Of a DNA stretch of 64,000 nucleotides, positions 1-58,590 are shown piece by piece. The notes beneath the pieces are model-generated. The model saw nothing but the letters and a program-made list of their open reading frames with translations. It searched no databases and had not been told where the DNA came from. Positions within the stretch are counted from its first letter, which is position 1. Each line of letters begins with the position of its first letter. The translations under genes and the position numbers were made by a program. Source of the DNA: Escherichia coli (GTDB lineage Bacteria; Pseudomonadota; Gammaproteobacteria; Enterobacterales; Enterobacteriaceae); the NCBI RefSeq assembly GCF_003334355.1, contig NZ_QOWP01000013.1; one strand, 5' to 3'.

Positions 1-77
1 TGTTTTTGTCATGTGAGTCACCTCTGACTGAGAGTTTACTCACTTAGCCGCGTGTCCACTATTGCTGGGTAAGATCA
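1..77 (-). mobile_element. IS3 left terminal inverted repeat plus first 4 codons of orfA (insE); element body lies upstream of the window
   Basis: Reverse complement of 1-77 reads TGATCTTACCCAGCAATAGTGGACACGCGGCTAAGTGAGTAAACTCTCAGTCAGAGGTGACTCACATGACAAAAACA, matching the IS3 end and orfA start (ATG ACA AAA ACA = MTKT) as I recall them. All three plus-strand frames hit stops within nt 1-47. Confidence 0.85.
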
Positions 78-695
78 GATAGCCCATCAGCCATAGCGGT
101 TGGGCAGCGTAAAGACGGGGAAATCTACACAGCGGATCTCAAAAGTAAGGCGCTTGCATTCACGATGGCACACGCACTTGAGCTCGGTGATAAAATGATT
201 TCAATCAATCTATTACCTATGACCCTGGTTAACGAACCTGACGCAGTCTCTTTTTTACTTAATGAAATAAAGGCCAATGCTCTGGTGCCTGAACAAATCA
301 TCGTTGAATTTACTGAAAGTGAAGTCATATCTCGGTTTGATGAGTTTGCCGAAGCGATTAAATCGCTAAAGGCTGCTGGTATCAGTGTAGCAATTGATCA
401 TTTTGGCGCAGGTTTTGCTGGTTTGTTACTCCTGTCACGCTTCCAGCCTGACAGAATTAAAATCAGTCAGGAATTGATTACCAATGTTCATAAAAGTGGG
501 CCACGGCAGGCAATTATTCAGGCGATCATAAAATGCTGTACATCACTTGAAATTCAAGTCAGTGCTATGGGCGTGGCAACACCAGAAGAGTGGATGTGGC
601 TTGAATCCGCAGGAATTGAGATGTTTCAGGGAGATCTGTTTGCTAAAGCTAAATTGAATGGTATCCCTTCCATAGCGTGGCCAGAGAAAAAATAA
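78..695 (+). pseudogene. bluF: bluF (ycgF) 3-prime fragment encoding the EAL-domain portion; 5-prime BLUF-domain part separated by the IS3 insertion
   Basis: Open frame from 78 (DSPSAIAVGQRKDGEIYTADLKSKALAFTMAHALELGDK...) to stop at 695; EAL-like C-terminus; synteny immediately upstream of bluR. Preceded directly by the IS3 end; no in-frame continuation upstream. Confidence 0.7.
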
Positions 696-814
696 TTTTC
701 AGCACATTCTTTCACATGATTTCAGTAAATCATCGTGAAAATGAATACGTTACGTTTAAATTTAATCCACATTAAAAATAATGTTTCATCCAATTTAGCT
801 GAAATCTTATTTAT

Positions 815-848
815 ACTTTGTACAATTTTAGCGTATATTGTACAAAGT
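815..848. promoter_or_regulatory. Perfect 12-bp inverted repeat ACTTTGTACAAT-N10-ATTGTACAAAGT upstream of bluR; candidate MerR-type operator
   Basis: Seen directly in sequence about 50-85 bp upstream of the bluR GTG start; the factor that binds it is inferred, not known. Confidence 0.4.
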
Positions 849-899
849 ATTATTGGGTCGTGTACAGGCGACGGAGATTTGTGACCGCAAGGAGGAATT

Positions 900-1631
900 G
901 TGGCTTATTACAGCATTGGTGATGTTGCTGAACGTTGCGGGATTAATCCTGTCACTCTCCGGGCCTGGCAACGCCGCTACGGTTTGTTAAAACCACAGCG
1001 CAGTGAAGGCGGACACCGACTCTTTGATGAAGAAGACATACAACGCATCGAAGAGATCAAGCGTTGGATAAGTAATGGCGTCCCTGTAGGCAAAGTTAAA
1101 GCATTACTGGAAACCACCAGCCAGGATACGGAAGATGACTGGAGCCGCCTGCAAGAAGAGATGATGTCAATTCTTCGCATGGCTAATCCTGCCAAACTAC
1201 GCGCGAGAATTATTTCACTGGGTCGAGAGTACCCAGTAGATCAATTGATTAATCATGTTTACCTTCCTGTTCGCCAGCGTCTCGTGCTTGATCACAACAC
1301 CTCCCGCATTATGAGCAGTATGTTTGACGGCGCATTAATTGAATACGCAGCAACCTCGCTTTTCGAAATGCGCCGTAAGCCCGGTAAAGAAGCCATTCTG
1401 ATGGCGTGGAATGTTGAAGAGAGAGCACGATTGTGGCTGGAAGCATGGCGTTTATCATTGTCAGGATGGCACATTTCTGTTCTTGCTGATCCCATTGAAT
1501 CGCCGCGCCCGGAACTGTTCCCGACGCAAACATTGATTGTCTGGACAGGCATGGCACCAACGAGAAGGCAAAACGAACTTTTACAACACTGGGGTGAGCA
1601 AGGTTATAAAGTCATCTTTCATGCCCCCTAA
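900..1631 (+). CDS. bluR: MerR-family transcriptional repressor BluR (YcgE)
   Basis: 243-aa ORF with GTG start preceded by AAGGAGG; N-terminal MerR HTH ([30 protein letters not shown]); synteny bluF-bluR-ycgX. Confidence 0.85.
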
Positions 1632-1851
1632 TTTCACCTTTATCCCGCCCCTTAGACAGAATGTTATAATCTGAACCCACAACAGCGTTTGTACCGGAGC
1701 TGGTCCGTTGCAAAATGCTCACCGGGAGAATTCAGATATTCCCTCTATCACACTCTGTACATATCACAGCCAAAGGACAGACCAGATTGAAGTGGTAAAA
1801 CCGATCGTGCACACTACGCAGTCTCACAACTAACAAGAGGTTATTATCCTG

Positions 1852-2256
1852 ATGGATCAGGTCGTTGTTTTTCAAAAGATGTTTGAGCAAGTGAGAAAAG
1901 AGCAAAACTTCTCCTGGTTTTATTCAGAATTAAAACATCACCGTATTGCACATTACATTTATTATCTGGCTACGGATAACATCAGAATTATTACTCACGA
2001 TGATACGGTTTTGTTATTAAGAGGAACCAGGAACCTGTTAAAAGTTAGTACGACCAAGAACCCTGCTAAAATAAAAGAGGCCGCATTGCTTCATATTTGC
2101 GGAAAATCTACATTTCGGGAATACTGTTCAACACTGGCAGGCGCGGGCGTTTTCCGGTGGGTTACTGATGTTAATCATAACAAACGCAGTTACTACGCCA
2201 TTGATAATACGCTTTTATATATTGAAGATGTAGAAAATAATAAACCATTAATCTAG
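1852..2256 (+). CDS. ycgX: DUF1398-family protein YcgX
   Basis: 134-aa ORF; length and position between bluR and iraM match the K-12 ycgX. Confidence 0.75.
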   Translation: MDQVVVFQKMFEQVRKEQNFSWFYSELKHHRIAHYIYYLATDNIRIITHDDTVLLLRGTRNLLKVSTTKNPAKIKEAALLHICGKSTFREYCSTLAGAGVFRWVTDVNHNKRSYYAIDNTLLYIEDVENNKPLI

Positions 2257-2465
2257 CTAAAGTTGGATACTTAAGAAATGCTTCATAATTCAGTAAGGCA
2301 TTAGCATAATGGAAATAAAAGTGCAGAGACTATCTCTATGGATGATTAATACTGTCTTTTTATTGTCACCCATAAATAATCACCAGACTAATACTATCAA
2401 CTTGATATTTGAAATGTGATCACTTGACTTTTGATACGTTATTTTATAACGGTTAACATATTTAT

Positions 2466-2512
2466 AAAAACAACGGCCGTGCCACACGTCCGTTTCAATA
2501 CTTAACGCACAT
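2466..2512 (-). terminator. Terminator-like hairpin (ACGGCCGTG..CACGTCCGT) with T-run on the minus strand; imperfect copy of the icd terminator
   Basis: Hairpin plus TGTTTTT on the minus strand; about 80 percent identical over 45 bp to 3333-3380. Confidence 0.45.
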
Positions 2513-2955
2513 GTATTTTGGTTTAGTCATCATCCGGTTATATGTATTTTAGCCAGGAACAGGTTAAATCATTCCTATATAACTCAAAAATTGAAACCTT
2601 ATTCTCATGTCATGCTTATATTCATTATTATCGTTATATAAAAAGGCAACCATAATGTTTAGCAAATTGGCACAAAGTAGCATAAAGGCTATGTTTTAAT
2701 TACAGGATGTTCAGTCATTTGAATGTATAACATTATAGCTAAACAAATCTAAAACGAAGTCAATAATTTATTGCTTTCACAAAATCTCATTTTGTTTAAC
2801 ATCCATTGAGATTCCTTGCTTTAAATTTTATTTTATATAAGCCATCATTTTAATTAATTTATTTTTTTGAGGGGGGGGTAATATACTCATATGCAAAATC
2901 AAGAAATAAACATCCTAATGAACCATATTAAATACCGTGGGATAAGACATAACAA

Positions 2956-3279
2956 ATGAAGTGGATAGTAATTGACACGGTAATTCAACCTACATGTGGT
3001 ATATCTTTTTCAGCCATATGGGGTAATATGAAAATGATCATCTGGTATCAATCTACTATATTTCTCCCTCCTGGCAGTATATTTACACCGGTTAAGTCTG
3101 GTATTATCCTTAAGGATAAAGAATATCCTATTACTATTTATCACATCGCACCATTCAACAAGGATTTATGGAGTTTACTCAAAAGCAGTCAAGAGTGTCC
3201 TCCAGGAGAAAGCAAAATAACAAATAAATGTTTACATAATAGTTGCATTATAAAAATATGCCCATATGGGCTCAAGTAA
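2956..3279 (+). CDS. iraM: Anti-adaptor protein IraM (YcgW), RssB inhibitor that stabilises RpoS
   Basis: 107-aa ORF ([18 protein letters not shown]...) in an AT-rich segment between ycgX and icd; matches my recollection of IraM in length and sequence. Confidence 0.75.
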
Positions 3280-3321
3280 TGGGCTTCATATAAATATGCT
3301 CGATATGCTATTAATAATATC

Positions 3322-3357
3322 CACATAAATAAAACAACGGGCGTGTTATACGCCCGT
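3322..3357 (-). terminator. icd rho-independent terminator
   Basis: Perfect 7-bp stem ACGGGCG/CGCCCGT with 7-nt loop immediately after the icd stop, followed on the minus strand by TGTTTTATTT. Confidence 0.75.
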
Positions 3358-54832: not shown

Positions 54833-55007
54833 GGTTGGCGATTCTAATTAGCCAACAGGATTCGCGCCACTCATTTTTCTATGCTTATATTTACTTTTGC
54901 ACCTTATTACTTCACTGCGTGATCACTTTATTGATGGTTATTAAACCAATCACCAGCAAGAAGTGAAAAAACTGTGAGTAAGCGGGTGATAAATGGTAAA
55001 AGTCATC

Positions 55008-55044
55008 TTGCTATAACAAGGCTTGCAGTGGAATAATGAGGCCG
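55008..55044 (+). promoter_or_regulatory. rne P1 promoter (-35 TTGCTA, -10 AATAAT, start near 55044)
   Basis: Hexamers with 18-bp spacing placed so the leader is the 361 nt I recall for rne. Confidence 0.5.
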
Positions 55045-55404
55045 TTTCCGTGTCCATCCTTGTTAAAACAAGAAATTTTACGGAATAACCCATTTTGCCC
55101 GACCGATCATCCACGCAGCAATGGCGTAAGACGTATTGATCTTTCAGGCAGTTAGCGGGCTGCGGGTTGCAGTCCTTACCGGTAGATGGAAATATTTCTG
55201 GAGAGTAATACCCAGTCTGTTTCTTTGATAATTGCGCTGTTTTTCCGCATGAAAAACGGGCAACCGACACTCTGCGCCTCTTTGAGCTGACGATAACCGT
55301 GAGGTTGGCGACGCGACTAGACACGAGGCCATCGGTTCACACCCGGAAAGGCGTTACTTTGCCCGCAGCTTAGTCGTCAATGTAAGAATAATGAGTAAGT
55401 TACG
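55044..55404 (+). promoter_or_regulatory. rne 5-prime untranslated leader (RNase E autoregulatory element)
   Basis: Long non-coding stretch directly upstream of rne; sequence (GUUUCCGUGUCCAUCCUUGUUAAAACAAG...) matches the rne leader as I recall it. Confidence 0.7.
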
Positions 55405-58400
55405 ATGAAAAGAATGTTAATCAACGCAACTCAGCAGGAAGAGTTGCGCGTTGCCCTTGTAGATGGGCAGCGTCTGTATGACCTGGATATCGAAAGTCCA
55501 GGGCACGAGCAGAAAAAGGCAAACATCTACAAAGGTAAAATCACCCGCATTGAACCGAGTCTGGAAGCTGCTTTTGTTGATTACGGCGCTGAACGTCACG
55601 GTTTCCTCCCACTAAAAGAAATTGCCCGCGAATATTTCCCTGCTAACTACAGTGCTCATGGTCGTCCCAACATTAAAGATGTGTTGCGTGAAGGTCAGGA
55701 AGTCATTGTTCAGATCGATAAAGAAGAGCGCGGCAACAAAGGCGCGGCATTAACCACCTTTATCAGTCTGGCGGGTAGCTATCTGGTTCTGATGCCGAAC
55801 AACCCGCGCGCGGGTGGCATTTCTCGCCGTATCGAAGGCGACGACCGTACCGAATTAAAAGAAGCACTGGCAAGCCTTGAACTGCCGGAAGGCATGGGGC
55901 TTATCGTGCGCACCGCTGGCGTCGGCAAATCTGCTGAGGCGCTGCAATGGGATTTAAGCTTCCGTCTGAAACACTGGGAAGCCATCAAAAAAGCCGCTGA
56001 AAGCCGCCCGGCCCCGTTCCTGATTCATCAGGAGAGCAACGTAATCGTTCGCGCATTCCGCGATTACTTACGTCAGGACATCGGCGAAATCCTTATCGAT
56101 AACCCGAAAGTGCTCGAACTGGCACGTCAGCATATCGCTGCATTAGGTCGCCCGGATTTCAGCAGCAAAATCAAACTGTACACCGGCGAGATCCCGCTGT
56201 TCAGCCACTACCAGATCGAGTCACAGATCGAGTCCGCCTTCCAGCGTGAAGTTCGTCTGCCGTCTGGTGGTTCCATTGTTATCGACAGCACCGAAGCGTT
56301 AACGGCCATCGACATCAACTCCGCACGCGCGACCCGCGGCGGCGATATCGAAGAAACCGCGTTTAACACTAACCTCGAAGCTGCCGATGAGATTGCTCGT
56401 CAGCTGCGCCTGCGTGACCTCGGCGGCCTGATTGTTATCGACTTCATCGACATGACGCCAGTACGCCACCAGCGTGCGGTAGAAAACCGTCTGCGTGAAG
56501 CGGTGCGTCAGGACCGTGCGCGTATTCAAATCAGCCATATTTCTCGCTTTGGCCTGCTGGAAATGTCCCGTCAGCGCCTGAGCCCATCACTGGGTGAATC
56601 CAGCCATCACGTCTGCCCGCGCTGCTCCGGTACCGGTACCGTGCGTGACAACGAATCGCTGTCGCTCTCTATTCTGCGTCTGATCGAAGAAGAAGCGCTG
56701 AAAGAGAACACCCAGGAAGTTCACGCCATTGTTCCTGTGCCAATCGCTTCTTATCTGCTGAATGAAAAACGTTCTGCGGTGAATGCCATTGAAACGCGTC
56801 AGGACGGTGTTCGCTGCGTGATTGTGCCAAACGATCAGATGGAAACCCCGCACTACCACGTGCTGCGCGTGCGTAAAGGGGAAGAAACGCCGACCTTAAG
56901 CTACATGCTGCCGAAGCTGCATGAAGAAGCGATGGCGCTGCCGTCTGAAGAAGAGTTCGCTGAACGTAAGCGTCCGGAACAACCTGCGCTGGCAACCTTT
57001 GCCATGCCGGATGTGCCGCCAGCGCCAACCCCAGCTGAACCTGCCGCGCCTGTCGTAGCCCCAGCACCTAAATCTGCACCGGCAACACCAGCCGCTCCTG
57101 CCCAACCTGGGCTGTTGAGCCGCTTCTTCGGCGCACTGAAAGCGCTGTTCAGCGGTGGTGAAGAAACCAAACCGTCCGAGCAACCAACACCGAAAGCAGA
57201 AGCGAAACCGGAACGTCAACAGGATCGTCGCAAGCCTCGTCAGAACAACCGCCGTGACCGTAATGAGCGCCGCGACACCCGTAGTGAACGTACTGAAGGC
57301 AGCGATAATCGCGAAGAAAACCGTCGTAATCGCCGCCAGGCACAGCAGCAGACTGCCGAGACGCGTGAGAGCCGTCAGCAGGCTGAGGTAACGGAAAAAG
57401 CGCGTACCACCGACGAGCAGCAAGCGCCGCGTCGTGAACGTAGCCGCCGCCGTAATGATGATAAACGTCAGGCGCAACAAGAAGCGAAGGCGCTGAATGT
57501 TGAAGAGCAATCTGTTCAGGAAACCGAACAGGAAGAACGTGTACGTCCGGTTCAGCCGCGTCGTAAACAGCGTCAGCTCAATCAGAAAGTGCGTTACGAG
57601 CAAAGCGTAGCCGAAGAAGCGGTAGTCGCACCGGTGGTTGAAGAAACTGTCGCTGCCGAACCAATTGTTCAGGAAGCGCCAGCTCCACGCACAGAACTGG
57701 TGAAAGTCCCGCTGCCAGTCGTAGCGCAAACTGCACCAGAACAGCAAGAAGAGAACAATGCTGATAACCGTGACAACGGTGGCATGCCGCGTCGTTCTCG
57801 CCGCTCGCCTCGTCACCTGCGCGTAAGTGGTCAGCGTCGTCGTCGCTATCGTGACGAGCGTTATCCAACCCAGTCGCCAATGCCGTTGACCGTAGCGTGC
57901 GCGTCTCCGGAACTGGCCTCTGGCAAAGTCTGGATCCGCTATCCAATTGTACGTCCGCAAGATGTACAGGTTGAAGAGCAGCGCGAACAGGAAGAAGTAC
58001 ATGTGCAGCCGATGGTGACTGAGGTCCCTGTCGCCGCCGCTATCGAACCGGTTGTTAGCGCGCCAGTTGTTGAAGAAGTGGCCGGTGTCGTAGAAGCCCC
58101 CGTTCAGGTTGCCGAACCGCAACCGGAAGTGGTTGAAACGACGCATCCTGAAGTGATTGCTGCCGCGGTAACTGAACAGCCGCAGGTGATTACCGAGTCT
58201 GATATTGCCGTAGCCCAGGAAGTTGCAGAACAAGCAGAACCGGTGGTTGAACCGCAGGAAGAGACGGCAGATATTGAAGAAGTTGTCGAAACTGCTGAGG
58301 TTGTAGTTGCTGAACCTGAAATTGTTGCTCAACCTGCCGCGCCAGTAGTCGCTGAAGTCGCAGCAGAAGTTGAAACGGTAGCTGCGGTCGAACCTGAGGT

Positions 58401-58590
58401 CACCGTTGAGCATAACCACGCTACCGCGCCAATGACGCGCGCTCCAGCACCGGAATATGTTCCGGAGGCACCGCGTCACAGTGACTGGCAGCGCCCTACT
58501 TTTGCCTTCGAAGGTAAAGGTGCCGCAGGTGGTCATACGGCAACACATCATGCCTCTGCCGCTCCTGCGCGTCCGCAACCTGTTGAGTAA
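55405..58590 (+). CDS. rne: Ribonuclease E
   Basis: 1061-aa [33 protein letters not shown]...; S1 domain; Arg-rich and acidic C-terminal scaffold. Confidence 0.97.

Follow-up and report, generated by a model that had tools for sequence, protein, structure and literature searches.

The closest described counterpart of the locus studied here is the leader of the RNase E gene (rne) of Escherichia coli K-12, which is represented in Rfam by family RF00040 (rne5) and for which a 5' untranslated region (UTR) of 361 nt has been published (PMC10989929). According to the established model, credited to Jain and Belasco (1995), Diwa et al. (2000), and Schuck et al. (2009), RNase E would bind the leader hairpin hp2 and speed the cleavage and decay of its own mRNA. 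Because the enzyme would accelerate the decay of its own message, its synthesis would track the demand for its activity, falling when activity exceeds demand and rising when activity is limiting, and the rne mRNA would be unusually sensitive to the RNase E activity of the cell. A shared logic, in which a long 5' UTR sensitizes the mRNA of a nuclease to that same nuclease, applies to rny of Bacillus subtilis and to the rne genes of Caulobacter and cyanobacteria, but the leaders of these genes differ from the E. coli rne leader in both sequence and structure. RNase E of E. coli does not cut hp2 but binds it and accelerates cleavage at other sites, whereas RNase Y makes cuts in the UTR and open reading frame (ORF) of its own gene; the alphaproteobacterial leaders form a separate structural class.

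Compared with the K-12 leader and the Rfam family, the leader described below has the same sequence, position, strand, and hp1/hp2/hp3 architecture, with no detectable difference. It is thus an already known element, indeed the type example, and its identification is correct but ordinary.

The rluC-rne interval

The window (i.e., the whole stretch of DNA that was analyzed) comprises 64,000 nt of E. coli contig NZ_QOWP01000013.1 (assembly GCF_003334355.1). The ORF listing and the K-12 annotation identified two divergent genes, namely, rluC, which encodes a 23S rRNA pseudouridine synthase, at 53873-54832 on the minus strand and rne, which encodes RNase E (1061 aa), at 55405-58590 on the plus strand. 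The ends of these two ORFs delimit a gap of 572 bp (54833-55404), exactly as given in an earlier interpretation made from the letters of the window (here, the sequence-only reading). Between positions 54700 and 55500, which cover the entire gap, we found zero differences from K-12 MG1655, and the 7-kb stretch around it was 99.5% identical to MG1655 positions 1140500 to 1147500 in reverse orientation. The rluC-rne region was found in all 5426 of the 5426 complete E. coli genomes, at an identity of at least 99% in 5396 of them. The interval is almost certainly the region from which the divergent E. coli genes rluC and rne are controlled, and it includes the known rne autoregulatory leader.

The 7-kb comparison with K-12 revealed 34 differences, all of them at or beyond position 56604; 31 fell in the coding sequence of rne and the other 3 downstream. 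Eight of these were third-codon-position changes within 34 nt (56604-56637), and further differences occurred at 56754-57409. Judged from its distribution, this cluster inside rne looks like a recombination patch beside a perfectly conserved leader.

The sequence-only reading had described the gap as the longest noncoding one in the window, which proved incorrect. The ycgX-iraM interval (2257-2955) is longer, at 699 bp without an ORF of at least 40 aa, and the only features annotated there in K-12 are the micro-ORFs ymgL (36 aa; window 2309-2419, plus strand) and ymgK (14 aa). Within the part of the window that is colinear with K-12 (window 3331-64000; K-12 1135772-1196424), no intergenic gap is longer than that between rluC and rne, and the next longest are ycfP-ndh (399 bp) and fhuE-hinT (333 bp). 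Prophage e14 is absent from the strain. Colinearity ends at window position 3331 (K-12 1196424, the 3' end of icd), and positions 1 to 3330 correspond to the K-12 sequence beyond e14, with iraM, ycgX, bluR, and part of bluF.

Structure and conservation of the rne leader

A scan of the whole window against Rfam returned two above-threshold matches, rne5 and SraB. The rne5 match (RF00040) extended over 55044-55380 on the plus strand and over the full model (positions 1 to 333 of 333), with a score of 260.1 bits against a gathering threshold of 180 (E value, 1.5e-80). It was unchanged with permissive filters and ended 24 nt before the rne ATG (55405), on the same strand. This full-length match and the K-12-identical sequence bear out the proposal of the sequence-only reading that the interval holds the 5' leader of rne. 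From other RNA families, the permissive scan of 54700-55500 recovered only microRNA models, at subthreshold, chance-level E values of 0.28 to 0.55. The SraB match (53015-53183, minus strand) was a full-length one of 210.6 bits; this small RNA (sRNA) overlaps the start region of yceF, as it does in K-12.

Given its identity with the K-12 sequence, the right-hand 361 nt of the interval (55044-55404, plus strand) would be transcribed from promoter P1 as the 5' leader of the rne mRNA, which extends from the P1 start up to the last base ahead of the ATG. Following the Rfam structure, the leader is predicted to fold into the stem-loop hp1 (55046-55085), the stem-loop hp2 (55095-55151), and the large branched domain hp3 (55157-55371), which consists of a long closing stem and three internal hairpins. 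The hairpin hp2 is the RNase E sensor of the literature and has the apical sequence CGCAGCAATGGCGTAAGACG at 55114-55133. The remaining segment (55372-55404), which is unpaired in the Rfam consensus, would present the ribosome-binding region of rne in single-stranded form; it was at least 95% conserved at most positions. RNase E binding and feedback would be expected to operate here as described in the literature on the identical K-12 sequence.

Folding of 55044-55404, which had been proposed as a way of recovering the hp2 stem-loop, yielded hp1, hp2, and the hp3 domain. The minimum free energy structure contained 73 of the 84 Rfam pairs, with 11 of 11, 11 of 17, and 51 of 56 pairs in hp1, hp2, and hp3, respectively. 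When folded alone, hp1 and hp2 had energies of -10.9 kcal/mol (z = -3.9) and -15.1 kcal/mol (z = -1.9), respectively. The stability of the whole leader was unexceptional (z = -0.66; 24 of 100 shuffles folded equally well) and thus uninformative, so the structural case rests on covariation.

Homologous regions were collected by scanning 100,044 species-representative genomes for the apical 20-mer of hp2 (CGCNGCAATGGCGTAAGACG), which returned at least 120 loci; the exact 20-nt pattern imposes invariance on those columns, and leaders with a diverged hp2 loop fall outside the sample. Among the 120 matches listed, the start of rne (MKRMLIN) was located 267 to 541 nt downstream of the motif in 115, and the N terminus of rluC was encoded on the other strand, about 281 nt upstream, in 113. 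The rluC-leader-rne order and spacing, with the hp2 20-mer upstream of rne, were found in more than 110 species of Enterobacterales. These counts show that both the layout and the length of the control region of about 570 bp are conserved across the order. Exact matches to the 20-nt pattern were also found in Henriciella mobilis and in a metagenome-assembled genome of Alteromonadaceae, with no above-threshold rne5 match, rne, or rluC nearby; they are consistent with the approximately two chance matches expected in 298 Gb.

We aligned 96 distinct leaders, ranging from Escherichia to Photorhabdus, Yersinia, and Pantoea, using MAFFT. The alignment was not fitted to a structure, and the Rfam structure was projected onto it via the row of the window. 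Across the 96 leaders, 87.5% of cells paired, versus 34 to 45% when the 3' partners were slid by 1 to 3 columns. Compensatory changes, in which both sides were altered, occurred in 51 of the 84 pairs and amounted to 475 cells, versus 203 ± 10 in shuffles; none of the 500 shuffles attained any of the observed pairing or covariation measures. The support extended over all three domains, with compensatory changes in both helices of hp1 (helices 1 and 2), covariation in the lower helices of hp2 (e.g., columns 82/132 and 90/124), and 62 to 99% pairing with many compensatory changes in helices 7 to 16 of hp3. Six distant loci, from Photorhabdus, Yersinia pestis, Xenorhabdus, Pantoea, Moellerella, and an insertion-bearing Citrobacter, exceeded the Rfam threshold with scores of 189 to 330 bits.

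Insertions in hp3 were observed at ten loci from Citrobacter, Pseudocitrobacter, Klebsiella oxytoca, Kluyvera, and Enterobacter sp. 10-1. They were 88 to 127 nt long (251 nt in locus L082) and were all located at one shared point, around leader position 141 (approximately window position 55185). One insertion-bearing locus, L042, still scored 217.8 bits with rne5. The inserted sequences were imperfect palindromes, and the Citrobacter copy contained CTGTAAGTGTCTGGGGTGAGAAG, which we take to resemble the ERIC2 primer site of ERIC/IRU elements.

The P1 promoter and the upstream 211 bp

The sequence-only reading had placed a putative P1 promoter at 55008-55044, and our results agree with this placement. 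The site comprises a -35 element, TTGCTA (55008-55013), an 18-nt spacer, and a TG-extended -10 element, AATAAT (55032-55037), on the plus strand. It matched 9 of 12 consensus positions and was the sole sigma-70-like site on either strand of 54700-55500. Both blocks were at least 95% conserved at most positions among the 96 Enterobacterales loci. The site ends 6 nt before 55044, and transcription would start at about that position, as described for the identical K-12 sequence, giving a leader of the published length.

The left-hand 211 bp of the interval (54833-55043), between the rluC start codon and the P1 start, form a divergent promoter region whose sequence is identical to that of K-12. 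This part would contain the promoter side of rluC, further upstream rne promoters, and a double DnaA box. A 555-bp fragment upstream of rne has been reported to comprise the promoters P1 to P4 (PMC8361080). Three blocks in and around this part were at least 90% conserved among the 96 loci: 54826-54851, which spans the start codon of rluC together with a small hairpin of its leader; 54864-54888, which is AT rich; and 54999-55038, with a UP-like sequence and the -35 and extended -10 elements of P1.

The hairpin beside rluC (GTTGGC-N11-GCCAAC on the plus strand, within 54826-54858) abuts the rluC ATG and is not accompanied by an obvious Shine-Dalgarno sequence. The start codon and the preceding 20 to 25 nt were at least 90% conserved in the 96 Enterobacterales, and the hairpin may control the translation of rluC.

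A 768-bp IS1A element was found between rluC and rne in strain M217 (positions 1693 to 2460 of that locus), with a 9-bp target duplication, GCTTATATT. The insertion site corresponds to window positions 54883-54891, inside the conserved AT-rich block, and the -35 element of P1 follows about 115 bp downstream. Among the E. coli matches listed at 100% identity, 14 more showed a two-piece match and an IS1A annotation (e.g., WCHEC005237, ECONIH6, and AR435). Any rne promoters located further upstream should be separated from the gene by this insertion.

A DnaA chromatin immunoprecipitation sequencing (ChIP-seq) peak with a double DnaA box has been reported at K-12 position 1144772 (PMC11317965), which corresponds to window positions 54973-54994. 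The ChIP-seq motif can be read there on the minus strand, as the reverse complement of tTTATCACCCgcTTACTCACAg, and it lies 14 bp from the -35 element of P1, on its upstream side. The double box was kept in the Enterobacteriaceae proper only and was not found in Yersinia, Serratia, or Pantoea. In view of the published ChIP-seq peak, a putative role of this box would be to couple rne transcription to the state of replication initiation.

We also considered a paired operator, given that the P1 -35 region, CTTGCTATAACAAG (55007-55020), resembles the hp1 apex, CTTGTTAAAACAAG (55059-55072), the two being near-identical palindromes 52 bp apart. This candidate was rejected because the promoter palindrome is conserved in its right half only among close relatives and because hp1 varies by compensatory change. 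The resemblance is probably a coincidence.

The antisense ORF yceQ and alternative explanations

The minus-strand ORF of 124 aa noted previously at 54950-55324 was confirmed, with a GTG start and 128 stop-free codons. It overlaps P1, hp1, hp2, and most of hp3, and it corresponds, with the same mapped coordinates, to K-12 yceQ (b1085), whose annotated form starts at an internal GTG and is 106 aa long (window 54950-55270, minus strand; K-12 1144502-1144822). The statement that the interval has no convincing ORF thus has to be amended insofar as this one is annotated in K-12; the part of it that stands is that the ORF is judged to be noncoding, in agreement with the view that it is most likely spurious.

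A lineage-restricted protein-coding gene, overlapping the rne leader in antisense, would be the main alternative explanation of this part of the interval. The curated K-12 record names the product a DUF2655 domain-containing protein, but searches with YceQ found no family in Pfam-A even at an E value of ≤10 and none in NCBIfam at an E value of ≤1, and PGAP left yceQ uncalled in strain M217 despite its intact ORF. Its 128 stop-free codons exceeded 81 ± 19 in 2,000 dinucleotide shuffles, of which 2.5% reached 128, i.e., the ORF is longer than 97.5% of them; such a length is mildly to moderately unusual and is expected a few times per genome. The colinear ORF was intact only in E. coli and Escherichia albertii. 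Truncated or frame-shifted antisense versions of 82 to 137 codons remain in several Enterobacteriaceae, and shortened versions are open in Salmonella and Citrobacter. In both of these genera, however, the frame is interrupted by the same stop at codon 101; 1-nt indels occur in Klebsiella, Kosakonia, Enterobacter, and their relatives; and Yersinia, Photorhabdus, Serratia, and Pantoea lack a colinear ORF, their longest antisense ORFs being 43 to 81 codons long and at unrelated positions. In all of the genera in which yceQ breaks, the RNA structure of the plus strand persists, held by compensatory changes. The third codon positions of yceQ showed no excess of substitutions (e.g., 15/9/19 against Salmonella). 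Its omega values (Nei-Gojobori) were 0.5 to 1.2, with dS values of 0.1 to 0.25, similar to the omega values of 0.3 to 0.8 for an arbitrary alternative frame. In the same genomes, omega values calculated over the initial 136 codons of rne and the initial 120 of rluC were 0.003 to 0.05, with far higher dS values (0.45 to 2.0); this contrast argues that it is the nucleotide sequence, rather than a protein, that is under constraint. The fact that the Keio and PEC collections list yceQ as essential (PMC5821084) is accounted for by the loss of the rne promoter and leader. Transposon insertions (TraDIS/Tn-seq) in yceQ are tolerated, but only if their orientation allows rne to be transcribed (PMC5821084; bioRxiv 10.1101/038851), and CRISPRi guides at yceQ are deleterious only on the rne-blocking strand, an asymmetry that implicates rne instead of yceQ (PMC6242692). 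Ribosome profiling under three conditions yielded zero reads for yceQ, and some strains carry a disrupted ORF (bioRxiv 10.1101/038851). No promoter-like site was found on the minus strand of 54700-55500. On these grounds, we regard it as highly improbable that yceQ is a real gene. The lack of a Pfam match, a dN/dS ratio of about 1, and the breakage of the ORF outside Escherichia indicate that the annotation is an artefact rather than a member of a protein family, and the ORF would have arisen incidentally from an RNA-coding sequence that is strongly conserved and poor in stops.

The interval might instead produce an independent regulatory RNA, either an antisense transcript or a stable, trans-acting sRNA derived from the leader, so that its role would go beyond autoregulation in cis. 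Other genes are known to give rise to stable 5'-UTR fragments. From RNA-seq coverage, ExcludonFinder lists rne-yceQ as a divergent overlapping pair, but this call follows trivially from the overlap of the rne leader with the yceQ annotation. Neither a promoter-like nor a terminator-like site was detected on the minus strand of 54700-55500, the best Rfam alternatives were far under their thresholds, and covariation specifically backs the structure of the plus strand. A 2024 paper in NAR on sRNAs and RNase E was not relevant to an sRNA acting on the rne leader. The chance of an independent RNA appears to be slighter still than that of a protein-coding yceQ. There is a slim chance, a little above that given to either of these explanations, that yceQ is a young, Escherichia-specific gene translated only under particular conditions or that the DnaA box couples rne to replication initiation.

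We therefore favor the reading of the interval as the rluC/rne control region with the cis-acting rne leader, i.e., the textbook autoregulatory leader of the main mRNA decay enzyme of E. coli, to which the present analysis adds nothing new. Its value for annotation lies in independent comparative evidence for treating yceQ as a noncoding overlap with the rne promoter and leader. Beyond the Rfam element itself, it is the whole rluC-rne control region that keeps its length and layout across the Enterobacterales.
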